Below the pieces are notes generated by a model, which was given only the letters and a program-made list of their open reading frames with translations, searched no databases and was not told where the DNA came from. This document shows, in pieces, positions 33 through 56,966 of a DNA stretch of 64,000 bases. The position numbers were made by a program, and so were the translations under genes. Numbering within the stretch: the first letter of the stretch is position 1; every line of letters starts with the position of its first letter. Origin of the DNA: Hormiphora californensis (lineage: Eukaryota > Animalia > Ctenophora); NCBI GenBank assembly GCA_020137815.1, contig CM035361.1, positions 2,976,001 through 3,040,000 of the forward strand. The letters run 5' to 3'.

Positions 33-11561
<11,529 letters not shown>

Positions 11562-11828
11562 TCTACGGGGAATTTATTTGTTATATTGATATTGGTAATC
11601 CAATCCTAAACAGCACCGAAAGTCCCTAGGCAGCTTTAGCTTTTCCGTGGTGACTGGCGGGCAATGTATTTTTTTAATTTTTGATAATTTCATATTAAAA
11701 TCGCGATTTCTTCCCGTCTTTAACCGGAAAAGTGTGTCCTGGACCAAGTGGAGTGTAGACACAGCCTTTCTTTGCATCTGGGCTTACACGGTAGCCCTGT
11801 GAACGGAAAGAAACACGAAAAGGGGAGT

Positions 11829-15131: not shown

Positions 15132-18100
15132 GGGAGGAGGGGAGAGGGAAATAAGGACTACAGAGGGATAAAGGGATAGTAAACACTATCCATCCAGTTG
15201 GAGGATGTTAGCTAGTTCCTCCAAATATCGCATCAACTGGGGATAGAGAGAGAGAGAGAGAGAGAGAGGAGAGGGAAATAAGGACTACAGAGGGATAAAG
15301 GGATAGTAAACACTATCCATTCAGTTGGAGGGTGTTAGCTAGCTCCTCCAAATACCGCATCAACTGGGGATAGAGAGAGAGAGGAGGGGAGAGGGAAATA
15401 AGGACTACAGAGGGATAAAGGGATAGCAAACACTATCCATTCAGTTGGAGGATGTTAGATAGCTCCTCCAAATACCGCATCAACTGGGGATAGAGAGAGG
15501 AGGGGAGTGGGAAATAAGGACTACAGTGGGATAAAGGGATAGCAAACACTATCCATTCAGTTGGAGGGTGTTCGCTAGCTCCTCCAAATACCGCATCAAC
15601 TGGGGATAGAGAGAGGGGGAGGGGAGAGGGAAATAAGGACTACAGAGGGATAAAGGGATAGCAAACACTATCCATTCAGCTGGAGGGTGTTCGCTAGCTC
15701 CTCCAAATACCGCATCAACTGAAAAGTACAGGATAGAGCGAGGGTGATCAGAGCTCGGGAGGTGAGAGATACGGATTGCTGCATCAGAGGCACTGTGTCT
15801 AATGTCTATCCCTCTGAAATCTGTATTGCTCCCCTCCCCTCTCAGTTACAGGTGGACGGACAAACAGACAGACACAGACACAGACATACACGCAGAGAAG
15901 TTAAAGATAGCTATTGAGCAGACAAGACCATTAAGGCACACCCCGGCACACCCTCTAAAGGGAGAGACATGGAAAAGAATGGAGATATAGTTGAAGATGG
16001 TTCAAGAAAAAGATAGATCACAGAGAGCTATCTCAAACTATAAGATCGCGTGATTTTATTCTCAAACATCCTGTGATAGTTGTGTTTGTTCGTTCAAGGA
16101 TCAAAAAAGAACCAAAATGAGGAGAATTCTGGTTTTCCTTTTATTGTTTACCACTCTTCCTGGAACAGAAGGTAAGGTGCAATTACCAAAGTCCAAGTTT
16201 TCACGGGCCGCAGCACACTTGAATTAAATTGAATTCAATTGAATGATTACACAGATTGCGGAATGTTTTTGCCAGGTAAGTCAAAATCACACTTGCAATT
16301 TTATTTCAGCGTGGATTCCAGTTGAACCAGGTGGTCTGATCAAACGTTTTGATATGGAGACCACCCCTCTTCAAATCAAAACCAACTCTACTGCCGGGAG
16401 TGGGGACAGGATTTTCGTGCGAACATACAAGTACATTGATAATATTGATACTGGACTCCACCATCGGCAACTGTATCGGTAGGACTGCCTTCTCAGTACA
16501 ACCAACAGGGGAAATAGACAAGATTTGGACCATTCGGAAGACGGCTACTAATCTCAGTATAGAGTGCAACGGGGTGGAGTTACTGAACTACCAGTTCAGT
16601 GACAGTAGAGATGGTCGCTGTGAATCAAAGTGGGAAGGAGATGTTGTGGAGATGATAAGATTTCCCTCTGATGACAATGCATCAGACCACTACCGTGCAA
16701 TGCCAACAGGTAATGAAGTGACTTAATTACTGATTTAATTAGTGATTTAATTAGTATCACTGTAGTACAGCTTTTCCATGATTATGACGAGAGTCTGTAA
16801 TGTTGAATCTCTCAACACCATTTCTATATCCATTAGTGTGTCCCGGGTTTACCGTGGACGGATCAGTGCAAGGAATGTGGAACGATACTGATCCTGGACA
16901 GACGGTGACCATCAACTGTCAGAAGAAGCACGTGCTAGACGGTAGCTCTGAGAGGACCTGTAATACCGACGGAATGTGGGATGATGAAGCTCCTATTTGC
17001 AGGAAACTGAGTAAGTATAATAGTCAGAGAAGTAGCCGGTAAGTTTTTGAAGTGCAGCACACTTGAATTCAATTGAATTCAATTGAATGATTACACAGAT
17101 TGCGGAATGCTTTTGCCAGGTAAGTCAAAATGAATCACACTTGCAATTTTATTTCAGCGTGGATACCAGTTGAACCAGGTATTCCGATCAAAAATTTTGA
17201 TCTGGAGACCACCCCTCTTCAAATCAAAGCCAACTCTACTGCCGGAAGTGGGGACAGGATTTTCGTGCGAACATACAAAGCAGATTGGGATTGGATAGGA
17301 GGAGTGCAGGTACAATTCACTTCTCCTACCATAATGGAATACGCCATCGGCAACTGTATCAGCTGGACTGCCTTCCCAGTACAACCAACAGGGGAAATAG
17401 ACAAGATTTGGACCATTCGAAAGACGGCTACTAATCTCAGTATAGAGTGCAACGGGGTGGAGGTTCTGAACTGCCGCTTCAGTGACAGTGGTAAAGACTG
17501 TGTATCAAGGTGGGGAGGAGATGTTGTGGGGTCGAGCTCCTGCTCTCTACTGTCTCTGTTATTTAAAAGACTCACCAGTAGGGGGATGCACTTAGGTCCC
17601 GGTCGGTTTGGCACCCGATGACCTAGGAGTGGTAACCACGCAGGCTGCGTAAGCGGCCATTGCCCGCGTGGGCTAAACAGTGCAATAGCATAGGGAGTCC
17701 CCACACTGACATTATATTGTCTTTGTGGACCAGACCTCTGCTTAGACAACTGCTCACCAACAGTCTATCCAGCTCAGCCATACATGCTGTTTTGATGAAC
17801 TGAAAGTGACTCAGCCAGGTGAAGTGGTGACCCACCTGGGATACTGCAACCAAGAAAAACAATATGAATAGCTATGACTCGACTTAATACACGCATTGGA
17901 ACATTTAACTGTCGAACGCTCCGTGTTAAGGAAAAGTTAAAAGAGCTGGTTTACCAATTTGCTGACAATGGCTTGGGCATAATCACTTTGCAGGAACACC
18001 GCATTGTCCACGCAGACACAGTCAGGCAGATTCAGGCTGGGCTAGGAGAAACTCTTATCACATCTACAGCCTGGCGCAACAGCGCAGGGGCATCGGTTGG

Positions 18101-21100
18101 AGGGGTTGGAGTTCTGATGAGAACTGAGTACTCGAAGCTCATTTGTGAGATACGAGCTGTGTCACATAGAATTCTAGCCATTACCTTGGCCGGTAACCCG
18201 AAACTGACAGTCATCTCGGTTTACTCGCCCACGGAGTGTGCGAATGTAGAGGAAGTTGAGAAGTTTCATCACGATCTCAGGGACTACATCAATACTGTTC
18301 CAGCTCATAACCTCCTTGTCGTTGCCGGAGATTTTAACGCCAGAATTGGCTGGGAGGACTCTGGCTTCGGGTGGTACTTGCATCAGCATACCAGTAGAAA
18401 TGGAGAGCTGCTCCAGGAGACAGTTGAGGAGACCAGATTGGAGGTAGCCAACGTTAGGTTCCGGAAGAACAAGGGAAGACTCTGGACTTTTCTCTCGGAT
18501 GGTACTGGACGGAAAGCTACATTGGATTACATTCTCGTCCGTCGGAAATGGAGAAACAGTATAAAGGATGTGGATACGTCCGAGGCACTAAGCTCGATTG
18601 GGTCAGACCATCGACTTTTGGTGGCCAGGGTTAAGGTCACTCTCAGGAAGAGGAAATTGGCCCCAGGTCGCCCCAATCTGGACTATAGTGCTCTGAAGAA
18701 GGACCCTGAACTGCAGGAGAGATTCTCGGTAGAGGTGCGGAATAGATTTGCTGTCCTTTCACCCACCGGATGTACTGATGCCTCGGAAAGGTATGGGGGC
18801 TTGATACAGGCGGTTGAAGAAACTAGCAAGAAACTACTGGGAAAGAAGAGGAAGAGGCTTAAGGATACTGTAGCTGAGGACTTCCGGGTGAAGAGGGCAA
18901 GAGAGGATCTTGAATCTGCCACTGCTAGATACCACACCTCACCTTCAGAAGAAACACGTTCCACTGTGAAAGAAGGCAAAGAGGCACTCACTGAAGCGTA
19001 CCTAGCCGTCGAGGAAGAGCATCTCGATAGGAAAATCAAGAGTGTAGAGAGAGCCACTCGGAACGCGAAGACGAAGGAATCATGGAGGCTAGTAAACGAA
19101 ATCTCTGGGAGGAAGGACAAACACCCCATCCAAATTGAAGGAACGTCCCCAGACGATCGGAAAGCCAAATGGTTCAGCCACTTCCAGTTGCTCCTCGGGA
19201 CAGAACCTCCGGATGAAGTAGATCAAGACATCCCGGAAGTGTTTCCCCGAGCAGATATCTACGATGGTCCCTTTACTGAAGAGGAATTTAAGAAGGCGAA
19301 GGATCGGATAAAGGAGGATAAGGCCTACGGAAATGATGCCATCGCACCCGAGATTTTGAAGCGATGCGACATTGATGACCTCGTGCTGACCTTTTGCAAC
19401 GATGCCTTGTGCGGAAAGGGAATTCCGGAACAGTGGACTCTGAGTAATATTGTCCCTGTGCCGAAAAAGGGCGACCTCTCTCAACCCGGAAACTATAGAG
19501 GCATCTCACTTACCTCTATAGTTGCGAAAACCCTGAACCGTATGCTACTTCACCGGATACGGCCTTACATCGAGACTGTGTTACTCGATTCCCAGAACGG
19601 TTTTAGAGAGGAACGGTCCACAGTCAGCCACATCCTCACGCTTAGGAGACTCATCGAAGGAGCTACTGCCAAACAACTACCACTGGCAGTAGCCTTTTTG
19701 GATTTCGTTAAGGCCTTCGACTCCATTAACCGGAAGCGCATGATCAAAGTTCTCAGGGCTTATGGCATCCCAGGGAAGATTGTCGACCTCATCCAGTGGA
19801 TGTACAGTAATACAAGAGCTCAGGTCCTCACCCCAGACGGCCTCACGGATATATTTGAAATAGTCGCCGGGGTGTTGCAAGGGGATACTCTAGCGCCCTA
19901 CCTGTTTATTATTGTGCTCGATTACTGTATGCGAACAGCACTGGAGAGGCACCCTGATATCGGATTCACACTGAAACCAGCCCGGAGTAGAAGAGTACGA
20001 GCGGAGAGGGTTACTGACACAGACTTTGCTGATGATGTAGCTCTCCTAGCAGACTCAGTGGAGGATCTTGGCGTTATCATGCGGGAGGTAGAGAGTGTCT
20101 GTAAGGAGGTGGGTCTCGAGATAAACCGGGCGAAAACAGAGTTCATGGTTGAGGGTATACCAGACCCCGGTCCTCTCCACAGTATCGATGGCACTAGGAT
20201 AAAGTTGAGTGAGGACTTCAAATATCTCGGATCGTGGGTAAGGGACTCTAAGAGGGACATTAAGGTTAGGAAGGCGAAAGCATGGAACGCGTGTCACGGG
20301 CTTAGGACTGTTTGGAATTCGAAACTAAACGATAAGATCAAGGCCAGACTTTTTGTAGCAACGGTTGAAACAGTTCTGTTGTATGGGTGCGAAAGCTGGA
20401 CGCTCACCAAGGACATGGAAAGGAGTCTTGACGGTACCTACACGAGGATGCTACGGATGGCACTAAATAAAAACCAGTACCTCCTTAAAATGAGCAATGC
20501 CACGTTGTATGGTATCGGAAATCTACCTATCCTTAGCACCAAAATAGCGGAAAGGAGACTCCGACTAGCCGGTCACGCTGTGCGTCACCCTGAACTTACG
20601 CTCAACAAGGTCATACAGCACAAACTCTGGGAGCCTCTCCACGGAAATTCCAGGCGAGGGCGACCAAAGCAGACCTTTGTGGATGTACTCAGGCGGGACA
20701 CGGGACTCAGGGAAACCTCCGAATTGGCTACTGTTATGACTGATCGTGTCGGGTGGAGAAGTGTTATTCATGGAGTTCGGAAATACCACTCGTGGAATCC
20801 GCCCTAAGTAAGTCAATAGTGACAACGCATCAGATAGCTACCGTCGAATGCCAACAGGTAATGAAGTGACTTAAGGCCAAAGGGGGGGGGGGGGGGTCTA
20901 AAAAGCCACTTTCGGGGGTTGGTCCGGCTCGAAGAGCCGAACCAGATGAAATAGTTGGAATCGTTTTAGTGCGCACCGTTAAGGAGAAAATTGAGGTGAA
21001 CTTTCACATATGTAAACCTCAGAAAAGTGCATTTTTTACCCTCTGGCCTTAATTAGTGATTTAATTAGTGATTTAATTAGTGATTTAATTAGTGATTTAA

Positions 21101-24100
21101 TTAGTATCACTGTAGTACAGCTTTTCTATGATTATGACGAGAGTCTGTTATGTTGAATCTCTCAACACCATTTCTATATCCATTAGTGTGTCCCGGGTTT
21201 ACCGTGGACGGATCAGTGCAAGGAATTTGGGACGATACTGATCCTGGACAGACGGTGACAATTGAATGTCAGAAGAAGCACGTGCTAGACGGTAGCTCTA
21301 AGAGGACCTGTAATACAGACGGAATGTGGGATGATGAAGCTCCTATTTGCAGGAAACTGAGTAAGTATAATAGTCAGAGAAGTAGCCGGTAAGTTTTTGA
21401 AGTGCAGCACACTTGAATTCAATTGAATTCAATTGAATTCAATTGAATGATTACACAGATTGCGGAATTTTTTTGCCAGAAATCGGGCAGGGAAAAAATG
21501 AATCACACTTGCAATTTTATTTCAGCGTGGATACCAGTTGAACCAGGTATTCCGATCAAAAATTTTGATCTGGAGACCACCCCTCTTCAAATCAAAACCA
21601 ACTCTACTGCCGGGAGTGGGGACAAGATTTTCGTGCGAACATACAAAGCAGATTGGGATTGGATAGGAGGAGTGCAGGTACAATTCACCTCTCCTACCAT
21701 AATGGAATACGCCATCGGCAACTGTATCAGTTGGACTGCCTTCCCAGTACAACCAACAGGGGAAATAGACAAGATATGGACCATTAGAAAAACGGCTACT
21801 AATCTCAGTATAGAGTGCAATGGGGTGGAGGTTCTGAACTGCCGCTTCAGTGACAGTGGTAAAGACTGTGTATCAAGGTGGGGAGGAGATGTGGTGGGGT
21901 CGATAAAGTTTGGTGCCAATAATGACAACGCATCAGATAGCTACCGTCGAATGCCAACAGGTAATGAAGTGACTTAAGGCCAGAGGGGGGGTCGGGGGGT
22001 CTAAAAAGCCACTTTCGGGGTTTGGTCCGGCTCGAAGAGCCGAATCAGATGAAATAGTTGGAATCGTTTTAGTGCGCAATTGAGGATAACTTTCACATAT
22101 GTAAACCTCAGAAAAGTGCATTTTTACCCTCTGGCCTTAATTAGTGATTTAATTAGTGATTTAATTAGTGATTTAATTAGTGATTTAATTAGTGTCACTG
22201 TAGTACAGCTTTTCTATGATTATGACGAGAGTCTGTTATGTTGAATATCTCAACACCATTTCTATATCCCATCAGCCTGTCCCGGGTTTACCGTGGACGG
22301 ATCAGTGCAAGGAAGTTGGAACGATACAGATCCAGGACGGACAGTGACCATCAACTGCCAGAAGAAGCACGTACTAGACAGTAGCTCTGAGAGGACCTGT
22401 AATACCGACGGAGAATGGAATGAAGATGCTCCTCTTTGCAGGATACTGAGTAAGTACGAGTATAATAGTCAGGGATGTAGCCGGTAAGTTTTTGAAGATG
22501 GGTGTATATGGGTCTGGGTACTAGATAAAACATTTTTTTATTTGACAAAAAGTTTGGGCAACTTTTTGTCAGCTAACTTTGGGCTGTAGGAGGGGGGGGG
22601 AGGGGGGGTCAATTATTGATTTGTTGTGTATTGTGTTTGTCAAGTTATACAGGGTTCTGATTTCTGAACGCACCCCTCTTGGATAAAACTTAGTTTCTAA
22701 ACGATTTGCAATGTTAATTATTATGACTTGTAATATTGTTTTAGGTGAGCTGTCAGACTCTTGAAACACATAATTCAAATTGCTCGCTTAATTACCATTA
22801 CAACTATCACACTAACAAACTAATTAACTTACTAATTAACTAACTAATTAGCTAATAAACTAATTACTGATTTTCGTACCTGATCCTTCTCTTTTCGTAG
22901 TGCATCTCTAACTGCATCAGCAGCTATCAGCTCCCCTTCCAATCCACTGTACTGCTTTTCCTTGTCCTCAACAAGAGCCACTGCCTAATTTTAATTAACA
23001 TAATTAATTAACTTGATTTATTAAGTTGCAGTTATTATACTAATTAATTGGTAATGAACAATTTTACCTTAGATCGATTAGTGGAACACCAAATCACTAA
23101 ATTACATAACTTTAGTTTCATCAATTAACTAATCTTTAAATTGGATTATTTAATTAATTTTTAATAGTTTTAATTGATTATTAATTAGTAATTACCTCTG
23201 ATGCTTCTCTTCTCATTCTGTCTGCTGTTCCTTGTGTGGTACTAAGCATAGTCCCCAACCTTTCTATCTCTCTCTGCTTTTCAACACTTTCCACCTATTT
23301 GAATGGGAGAGCGGTGAGAGACGGTCGAGAAATGTAACTATAGATTTCAGGTGGTGGGATAATGGTTTGGACAAAAGACTGCAGTCTGGTGGTGATCCGA
23401 AAAGGATGTTCCGGCACTGTACTAAAAACAATAAACAGTAAAATTGTAAGTAAGTAAGGAACAAATCAAACTGAGCTGTATTAGATATTTGTACAGTCGG
23501 ACCCCGATTTACCGGGACGCTCGGGGAAGAATTTTCCCCGGTAAATCAGGGTGCCCGGTATACCGGGGTCCAATAGTACCTTAGTACGGTTGAGTGCGAT
23601 AACAAAGTTCTCAAGTGCCTCTTTTATCTCCTGTTCGTTCCGTTCTACTGTATATCCACATGTACCTGGGGGGTTAGATTTGTAATTAGTTACCATAAAG
23701 GTATATAAATGGGAACTAATTGATCACCTACTACTTAGTTTACTAACTAATTAATTAATTTATCAGCAACTAAATACCTAAAACTGAGCAGATATTCTCC
23801 ACAAATTGGGTATGTTTTAGATCGCTCATCTTTGTAGCGTCTGTCTGGGTGTCCAAGGCAACCCCCAACAAGGAGTGTTTCTGTTCCAGTTTAGCGAGAT
23901 TTGACCTGAAGGGTCGAAGGGATCAATGATCAGATCTAAATTCCGAGCTCTCTCTAGTAAAAGTAACAATCTCTATTTTGCTCTCTTTAGTAAAATTAAC
24001 AATCTCTATTCTGCTCTCTTTAGTAAAAGTAACAATCTCTATTCTGCTCTCTTTAGTAAAAGTAGCAATCTCACCACCACTACCACTCACCTAGTAGTCT

Positions 24101-34918: not shown

Positions 34919-36221
34919 ATGTTTCTCAAGCGATTGCTCCTTGTCGTTTTGCTGATTCACTCTGTGAATCCCGCAGGTTGGTAACAAACTATAAATTAAT
35001 TGAAAATATCCATGTTCATTATCGGTAGTTCATAGTTCGTTTTAAGCAAGAGCTTGGACCAGCTAGAAATTCCTGTCAGAAATCTGTGAGCCAAAATTAA
35101 TCACACTTGCAATATTATTTCAGCGTGGATTCCAGTTGAACCAGGGGCTCTGATCTCAAATTTTGATCTGGAGAGCACCCCTCTTCAAATCAAAACCAAC
35201 TCTGCAGCCGGGAGTGGGGAACAGATTATATTTTATGATCGGATTGTAGTGTATGCATACAACGGTGTGAGTTGGATTGGAGCACTGCAGGTGAAGTTCG
35301 CCTCTCCTATCCAATACCGAATCGACTACTGCGCCGGGTGGACTGATCTCCCAGTACAACCACCAGATGAAGTGAATAAGATTTGGACCATTAGAAAAAC
35401 GGCTACTAATCTCGGAATAGATTGCAATGAGGTGGAGGTTCTAAACTTCCAGTTCAGTGGTATAAACAGTGGTAAAGACTGTGTATCAAGGTGGGGAGGA
35501 GATAAAGTGAATCAGATACGCTTTCACTCCGACGATGCTGCATCAGACCACTACCGTCGAAAGCCAGGTAACGAAATTAACAAAAAAACATCATATGATT
35601 TTTCATGATTTTTTCTTCACCCAGATGCCTTTTGCAAAAAGGCATAGGGGTTTAGAAATCTAAACGGATATAGTGACTATGTGTAGCAAGTCAGCTCTCT
35701 TGTCCCGTTTCAGGTTGCGAGGGGCAACATGTAGCAACTAGAGCCACGCACACAACAACAACCTGCTCCTTCATAAACCACTTCATTGACACGTTTTCAG
35801 GAAATGTGTGGCGCACAATTCCGCAATGTGGCGCGCAATTTAGTGCTACTAAAACACAAGGATTTGTTCTATACTGTTTGCGTGATCTATAAATGATCCA
35901 AAATGTCTGTCCCGCCTTCGTGTTAGAAATGAAACGTTAGCGGGGAAACATAGCATTATGAAACATAATGCATTTATTCTTGTTTGCCATGATAAGCTGC
36001 ATATATATATCGAATCTCTTGAGACCATTTCTATTGATCAGCACAAACGTGTCCCGGCTTTACCGTGGACGGATCTGTGCAAGGAAGTTGGCACTACATT
36101 GTTCCTGGACAGACCGTGACGATCAACTGTCAGAAGAAGCACGTACGAGACGGTAGCCCTGAGATGACCTGTAATGACGATACAATTTGGGATGATGAAG
36201 TTCCTCTTTGCAGGAAACTGA
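34919..36221 (+). CDS. Secreted protein: signal peptide + family domain + Sushi/CCP (paralog of 16117-22764); terminal exon uncertain
   Basis: Exons 34919-34976 (MFLKRLLLVVLLIHSVNPA), 35124-35567 (WIPVEPGALISNFDLESTPLQIKTNS...DAASDHYRR) and 36042-36221 (CPGFTVDGSVQGSW...NCQKKHVRDGSPEMTCNDDTIWDDEVPLC), all phase 1 and open. Confidence 0.85.
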
Positions 36222-36682
36222 GTAAGTATGATTGTATGAGTGGTGAGTATGTCAGGGAAGTAGCCGTTGTATTTGGGTCTGGGCAATTTAACTTTTTTAC
36301 CCGACAAAAAGTTTGGGCAACTTTTTGTCAGCTAACTTCCCTTTTGACCATTTTTTCTAACTGTTCACGCCCTTTCAATGACATCTCAGGTTCCTGATCA
36401 GTCATAGAGATAAGAGACTTCGTCCGACTGCTGTGGAAATTTGAAGTTGTCACCAAAAATAAAATTCGTGAAATTGTGTAAAATAAATTGGTGAAATTTA
36501 TTACTTTTCGACGCGCGCATCCCTCCTGAAGGGCGCGCATTTGGGATCTGCAGCGCATTTCAAATGTTTACGCTGCAGCTCAGTCCCCTGTATTTTATCG
36601 CGATATCGGTTGTAGGTGGCCGCGCCGTCAAAAACGCACGCACTTGAGGACTTCAGATCCATCTGTTAAAAAGTGAAAGATA

Positions 36683-56294: not shown

Positions 56295-56966
56295 ACAATA
56301 ACAACTCCTCCAGTATGTGGTCCCGCATTACACAAAAAGCTTTATAAACGCCGTTATTAAATGGCCTCAAAAGCAGCCTTTGTCTGCACATCCATATTGT
56401 CTAGACCACGTTTAACAAATGTCAGTAAAGTTGAAGTTCCATAATAGGTGCTCACAGCTGCTTGTATTGTCCACCCAACTCCAAGCTTCCCCTCCCATCT
56501 CCAGGTACAATAACACTGTCCCTTTATCCAGCAGTGTCGGTATAACAATAGCAGTTGGCCTGCCCCCTTTATCCAGCGATGACGGATCAAGGGCGTGGTA
56601 GACAAGTCTAGCTATTGTAAAGTGCTAGATGTCCATTGTTATGGAGGATAAAAGGGGACACTACTACTATAATAGCTGAATTTAACAACATGGTTAGTGT
56701 CAAAGCTGTCGCAGAACCGTTGCGTTTAGTTTCTCAATTCAATTCTCTGTATCACTATCAGTTGTTAGGCGTCTGTTCTATTATAAGTTGCAAATGTTAT
56801 ATTCTATGATTTCTATTACAAATTTTATTTTCTATGATTACCAATAACAGCTGGGTCTAAAACTTGGTTTCTGGTAACAGTTATTTCCCACGCTCGAACT
56901 ACTTGATATCGTAACCAAACATGCTCTGATTCCCCAACTCTTTCCAATTCTAGCTGCGAAGGAGTT

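Follow-up and report, generated by a model that had tools for sequence, protein, structure and literature searches.

The window, a 64,000-nucleotide stretch of the Hormiphora californensis genome (contig CM035361.1), carries on its forward strand a host gene built of tandem units, each consisting of a Sushi exon and a repeat domain of about 140 amino acids without a Pfam family. These units span positions 16216-22500 and 35090-36240 of the window. A large exon of a NOMO1-like gene is located elsewhere, at 10878-11573 on the reverse strand. Twelve protein matches to the host repeat were obtained. The four that carry species names are all ctenophore (Pleurobrachia bachei and Mnemiopsis leidyi), while the other eight carry "sb" labels, which we take to mark P. 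bachei gene models. The named relatives of the host gene thus agree with the early-branching animal that had been proposed as the source of the DNA. One exon of this gene is interrupted by a retrotransposon (Table 1). Element and host exon both lie on the forward strand and the exon resumes past the element, and the sense insertion put forward in the original prediction is supported. The same prediction described the host gene as nested, a term that is at most provisional, since no enclosing gene was found among the 57 non-element ORFs scanned, a scan that small exons could escape. The unit bearing the element is a 94% near copy of the next unit. No target-site duplication was found, and 13-16 bp of the target are missing compared to the empty paralogous exon, which is not the true empty allele.

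The open frame of the element spans 17868-20807 and has its first ATG at 17874. Its product matches both an APE endonuclease and a reverse transcriptase, as expected for the intact element that had been claimed. RTE elements are characterized by a short tandem-repeat 3' tail and by the lack of RNase H and of a C-terminal zinc knuckle. Indeed, the element ends in short repeats, a Pfam scan of the ORF product returned no RNase H domain and a CCHC motif was not seen. A single ORF with endonuclease and reverse transcriptase is also the arrangement given for Perere-3 in passages of PMC8501958. We refer to the element as RTE-like, a membership suggested by its anatomy; the reverse transcriptase tree contains no named RTE reference, and the relatives in it are unnamed or uninformatively named. 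The upstream ORF (17864-17887) starts at an ATG that follows a GAAAA motif and overlaps the main ATG in another frame. A TGATGA ... GAAAA-(4-6 nt)-ATG arrangement precedes the main ORF (window 17794-17866) and likewise the ORFs of six related loci (L001, L002, L011, L013, L020, and L082), often surrounding a hairpin. We considered this motif as a hammerhead and rejected it, as stem II has no consistent closing pair and there was no Rfam match. Pairing between the 5' UTR and the 3' end is not supported, with 21 of 30 shuffles as good and the duplex itself equaled in 18 of 200.

Table 1. Features of the interrupted exon, the predicted ribozyme and the RTE-like element (positions in the window).
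Feature	Position	Strand	Basis or remark
5' part of interrupted host exon, resuming at about 20813-20860	17158..17535	+	ctenophore domain, repeated in alternation with Sushi exons
P1, 5' strand; element starts at predicted G1 (G17536), predicted cut 17535/17536	17536..17541	+	empty paralogue, contig starts in samples X1 and X2
J1/2 domain: 10-bp helix P1.2 and small apical hairpin	17543..17585	+	folding
P2, 5' strand	17587..17593	+	pairing
P3, 5' strand, partner 17622-17624	17594..17596	+	upper two pairs G-C, in relatives C-G
L3, 25 nt: T17597 (U20 equivalent), C17598-C17599 (P1.1), G17620 (G25 equivalent), A17621	17597..17621	+	
Hairpin insert of L3, 18 nt (5-bp stem, 8-nt loop)	17602..17619	+	folding; a 7-nt L3 remains on removal
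3' strands of P3 and P1 (17625-17630), then G17631-G17632 (P1.1)	17622..17632	+	
J1.1/4 and P4 (6-bp basal helix, inner hairpin, GNRA-type loop)	17633..17671	+	P4 proper 17636-17671
J4/2 (G-C17673-T-A-A, predicted catalytic C17673), then P2 3' strand	17672..17684	+	
Rest of 5' UTR, including 7-codon upstream ORF from ATG 17864	17685..17873	+	sequence
Intact ORF, 977 codons, ATG 17874: APE endonuclease and reverse transcriptase	17874..20807	+	Exo_endo_phos 3.9e-11, RVT_1 1.1e-33
3' tail, short repeats of TAAG(T) type; CAA at 20813-20815 makes the junction ambiguous	20805..20815	+	similar repeats end related loci

Comparison with the empty paralogous exon at 21868-21953 places the 5' end of the element at G17536. 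To this we added contigs of the samples X1 and X2, each from a different study, aligned to 17516-17750 (39 and 8 contigs); X2 is possibly the source of the window itself. In X1 the depth is zero 5' of 17536 and the two longest 5' contigs (records 1 and 2) begin exactly there. In X2 both the locus junction and a second flank (255 loose letters) meet the element at 17536; one contig of 103 nt is identical over 17536-17638. The exact 5' end named in the original prediction is therefore shared by other copies, one of them with a different flank. The element is multi-copy, and its two unrelated flanks show that it is not site-specific. No X1 contig spans the locus junction; this insertion is perhaps polymorphic, though such a gap proves nothing. 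Truncated or rearranged copies among the contigs begin at 17568, 17593, and 17594. In one X1 contig the element's own 17739-17765 runs back into 17593; this rearranged 5' end is possibly due to a template jump. The RNA runs X16 and X20 yielded no contig matching 17516-17750, by which absence is not proven. In a run from organism B (X12) and in one from seawater (X7), the start of the ORF is present with about 95% identity while 17548-17799 is uncovered, which would reflect either a different 5' end or a contig break. In organism B the letters 5' of 17811 differ and the ribozyme is uncovered, possibly reflecting a swapped 5' end.

The first 149 nt of the element (17536-17684) hold all helices and key bases of an HDV-like ribozyme, with the pairings read from the sequence. 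P1, P1.1, P2, P3, and P4 follow each other as a nested double pseudoknot, and every helix named in the original prediction was found in its place. P1 comprises 6 bp (17536-41/17625-30) with a basal G-U pair (G17536-T17630), in the 6-7 bp range given for HDV-like ribozymes in passages of PMC4908430. P1.1 is formed by C17598 and C17599 paired with G17631 and G17632, and P2 by 6 bp (17587-92/17679-84) plus T17593-A17677 across the bulged C17678. Between P1 and P2 we recognized an additional helix that had escaped the original prediction. This P1.2 (17543-52/17576-85) has 10 bp, is set off by 1-nt linkers and folds with -14.2 kcal/mol and pair probabilities of 0.87-0.98; the J1/2 domain as a whole has a z score of -2.2, and 7 of 200 shuffles were equally stable. 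The catalytic cytosine of such ribozymes lies in J4/2 and is followed by N-purine-A, which is found here as C17673-T-A-A, and CTAA also occurs in seven of ten related cores. By structure alone C17673 and T17674 suit the catalytic slot equally well. We prefer C17673, because G-G-C-T-A-A matches the relatives. T17597 is the first and G17620 the penultimate base of L3, as are their counterparts in all ten related cores compared; here the distance between them is 23 nt rather than 5, and an alternative pairing is possible.

The unusual part is L3 itself, which has 25 nt where about 7-8 nt would be expected. Its inserted stem (17602-06/17615-19) has 5 bp and a folding energy of -4.5 kcal/mol, and shuffling the 18-nt insert yielded an end-to-end hairpin at least as stable in 35 of 5,000 cases. 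Without 17602-17619 the loop starts with T and has G second to last. The terminal GA recurs in the 7-nt loops of three related loci (L001, L024, and L035). A placement of the hairpin between P2 and P3 was rejected, because the CC of P1.1 lies 5' of it. Eight nucleotides of the hairpin loop (17608-17615) are complementary to the empty target site (21912-21919), a match that we judge to be chance, because another copy has an unrelated flank. No partner for the loop stands out across the element.

We searched both strands of the window with a descriptor of our own that permits an L3 of 6-40 nt. It recovered the site at 17536 and one further match, at 56689 on the reverse strand, which is weaker and has no extra core marks. 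Thus the long-L3 search proposed as a check finds the site as one of two matches in 64 kb. The same descriptor limited to L3<=8 gave no match in the window. Rfam returned no ribozyme family for the site at E<=10, only two weak unrelated matches. Since 20 related loci, several of them with canonical cores, also gave no match at gathering score, Rfam is insensitive for this element group. A covariance model built from P3 and P4 of eight canonical related cores ranked the site first of 15 in the window (8.6 bits, E 0.64). The rank lends weak support to kinship with the canonical relatives, and the low score shows directly how the insert hides the motif from a canonical model. The anticipated invisibility to standard searches is evident from all three approaches.

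A permissive descriptor may of course fit by chance: its loose form produced 27 matches in 12 shuffled windows (2.25 per window), the site has no Rfam ribozyme match, and its score in the covariance model is E 0.64. Against such an origin, 42,475 dinucleotide shuffles of 17436-17800 gave 110 loose matches anywhere and none at the offset of the junction, which had been fixed independently. Strict matches were absent from both kinds of shuffles. In addition, related elements carry HDV-like cores upstream of the same ORF. We conclude that a chance origin of the fold at the junction is negligible, and regard a mere descriptor fit as very improbable overall.

The related elements were collected in a scan of metagenome contigs, from which 80 of 260 relatives were kept. 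We examined 40 loci for which upstream DNA was available, 38 of them from this set and 2 from GTDB genomes. HDV-like cores were recognized in 12 of the 40 loci (L001, L003, L005, L009, L011, L013, L015, L020, L024, L035, L051, and L070), representing 11 families, with L001 and L003 forming one. The remaining 28 loci showed no convincing core, and many of them are cut short at the 5' end. A full P1 is present in 7 of the 12 cores; shuffled upstream sets gave 6 such matches in 10 rounds. These marine RTE-like elements share 42-54% protein identity with the element studied here, and in most of them GG-x-AAC...GGCTAA and a P2 with an irregular top recur. In a hand-fitted register, all ten cores compared retain the catalytic C, U20, a G in the penultimate position of L3 and Watson-Crick pairing in P1.1. 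In the corresponding hand-fitted alignment, the sequences of P1 and P3 differ from those of the relatives while the pairing is retained, with P3 being G-C,G-C in the element studied here and C-G,C-G in the relatives; L001 and L020 have a swapped P1.1 (G-C,C-G). The L020 core (343-480) has an HDV-like fold with a short J1/2, a long P4 and an ambiguous P2 register. L001 and L003 are 98% identical from exactly the predicted G1 onward, and their flanks differ.

In a quick reverse transcriptase tree (86 rows, 390 columns) the window protein falls into a 16-row clade together with L001, L003, and L020 (SH-aLRT 98). No relative was encoded by any of 29 viral candidate contigs, and the long-L3 pattern matched six viral loci, none of which adopts the HDV-like fold at the match. 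GTDB genomes contributed six loci of relatives, likely host contamination. Two of these with upstream DNA, L082 and L084, were scanned and had no HDV-like core. Both are near full-length RTE-like elements, and the bacterial MAG contigs in which they lie are labeled Rhodospirillales; DNA of an animal host has likely contaminated the bin.

L3 measures 7 nt in all 12 related cores, compared to 25 nt here, and the hairpin therefore looks derived. Most simply, it is a gain in this element family, because the sister clade and a deeper branch of the tree also hold 7-nt loops; for this reading the three nearest proteins (P0002, P0003, and P0026) were compared without their DNA. Two related families have a hairpin at another site: in L001/L003 and in L035 it lies between P2 and P3 rather than in L3. 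This variant (L001:885-1035, L003:1399-1550, and L035:119-312) has a 4-bp stem and a 7-nt loop, and one of its pairs is G-C in L001/L003 and A-T in L035. L035 has no P4.

Among the 16 of 47 aligned pieces listed, 17516-17750 contains no indel or joint, and hence no aligned contig has a short L3. The hairpin thus seems to be family-wide in the element. The listed pieces carry seven changes: one each at 17639, 17653, 17660, and 17663, all within P4, two at 17685 and one at 17712, both sites being outside the fold. P4 is accordingly the only part of the ribozyme with variants among these pieces, and the change at 17639 (C>T) retains a G-U pair. The variant list leaves aside changes near contig ends, and X1 record 3 (17564-17622) has one unplaced difference.

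Taken together, we think that the 149-nt fold is probably active and cuts before G17536 to free the element from host transcripts, with the hairpin as a neutral graft. A host transcript would read through the element; P1, P2, P3, P1.1, and P4 would then form, with P1 and P2 tied to each other by P1.2, as a stable P1.2 is described to speed cleavage in drz-Agam-2-1 (passages of PMC4908430, which also assign L3 and J4/2 to the catalytic core). The hairpin would stack outward from a point flanked by the counterparts of positions 24 and 25, so that the reverse wobble of T17597 and G17620 might still be possible; U20 and G25 are treated as signature bases in the parts of PMC3386971 and PMC6326823 covered, and U23 is flexible in HDV crystals (PMC4227795, in part). 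C17673 would act as the general acid together with Mg2+. Passages of PMC13635239 describe C75 as the general acid and Mg2+ as activating the nucleophile, with changes of G25 impairing cleavage about 1000-fold. The 5'-OH product would be translated and reverse transcribed, giving full-length copies that begin at G1. The hairpin is most likely derived and a tolerated graft.

Two points call for caution. L3 belongs to the catalytic core and changes of G25 are severe, which weighs against activity with an insertion there. Nested folding predictions, moreover, favor a competing fold of -58.3 kcal/mol over -47.8 kcal/mol for the P1-nested part, about 10 kcal/mol better, with the energy of the pseudoknot uncounted. 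In this fold P3 is extended by T17597-A17621 and C17598-G17620, while other hairpins take up G17631-G17632 and C17673, the latter paired at 0.99. We do not read this as a refutation, because the pseudoknot energy is ignored and several canonical relatives are similarly buried: the C75 equivalent is paired at >=0.87 in 4 of 10 of them.

The dominance of the extended P3 could nevertheless mean that an HDV-derived fold has been crippled by the insertion in L3. The 5' end would then come from an internal promoter, as in L1Tc, where promoter and ribozyme occupy the same 77 nt at the start (PMC3383444, in the passages covered), or the fold would serve as a stable and nuclease-resistant cap or as a translation signal. 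Passages on R2 are in line with this, since some R2 ribozymes with intact ORFs are inactive in vitro (PMC3774820) and R2 templates benefit from the HDV-like fold independently of cleavage (PMC11331408). However, all catalytic positions are retained here, the core is free of variants among the pieces listed, and copies begin at the base predicted by the geometry of P1, with which a promoter start need not coincide. We consider a crippled fold unlikely.

The extended P3 could also be put to use. The hairpin stacks on it and stabilizes it at -12.1 kcal/mol, and might switch the RNA between this inactive form and the active pseudoknot, or offer a handle to the element's protein, so that cutting would be timed or tuned. 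The main contigs of both samples have the hairpin, L001/L003 and L035 also have hairpins next to the core, though placed elsewhere, and R2 protein binds a structure in its own 5' RNA according to passages of PMC6765202. On the other hand, covariation for the hairpin was not detected, the element copies being too alike and none of the 12 related cores having the hairpin. The extended-P3 region is not unusually stable either (20 of 200 shuffles), and, as noted, the loop has no obvious partner. A functional hairpin seems quite improbable to us, and a neutral graft on an active ribozyme is the reading that we follow. A bolder version of it is possible but doubtful: L3 of the HDV fold, otherwise regarded as a part of the active site with a fixed 7-8 nt, may accept a whole helix and stay active, RTE-like elements may have grafted helices next to the core repeatedly (into L3 here, between P2 and P3 in two families), a large class of ribozymes may be hidden in this way, and the graft may be a switch or protein handle.

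RTE and other non-LTR retrotransposons with HDV-like ribozymes at their 5' ends were reportedly described by Ruminski in 2011. Passages of PMC5786205 and PMC6765202 report such 5' ribozymes for RTE, R1, R2, R4, Ingi, and LOA elements. Our candidate resembles the known ones in forming a nested double pseudoknot from the first base of the element, upstream of an ORF for APE and reverse transcriptase, and in its key bases. It differs in that their L3 has about 7 nt, while here it has 25 nt and its own helix, in the ctenophore host and in that its activity is predicted. With drz-Agam-2-1 of Anopheles gambiae it shares a structured J1/2 (P1.2) between P1 and P2 (PMC4908430, in part). Membership in the drz-Agam-2 type is not supported, though, since the P2 of that ribozyme has 12 bp in the same passages compared to 6-7 bp with a bulge here, alongside the L3 hairpin and the lack of an Rfam ribozyme match. 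R2 ribozymes, in the passages of PMC3774820 covered, likewise process 5' ends and conserve bases of P1.1, P3, and L3; variation there falls into J1/2 and L4/P4, and P1.1, P3, and L3 together make up fifteen nucleotides. R2 is site-specific, and the element described here is not.

In the full-text literature searched we found neither a natural helix in L3 nor a ctenophore RTE ribozyme; figures were outside this search, and L3 is unsearchable as a term alone. The passages covered include those of PMC3774820, PMC10879173, PMC4870747, PMC11331408, PMC13188248, PMC8501958, and bioRxiv 10.1101/2022.08.21.504695, and the passages of the Kojima 2018 supplement contain no RTE ribozyme 5' ends. The structural subtype can provisionally be called undescribed, as had been suggested, against these full texts. 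Ribozyme-defined 5' ends of retrotransposons are already known, and what is new here, again provisionally, is the hairpin inside L3. This copy heads an intact autonomous element and is therefore a good one to test. If cleavage proves true, the catalytic loop of the HDV fold would accept a helix, present search descriptors would miss such ribozymes and need to be changed, and RNA engineers would gain a new point of attachment next to the active site. Ctenophores would then also count among the hosts of ribozyme-processed RTE-like elements.
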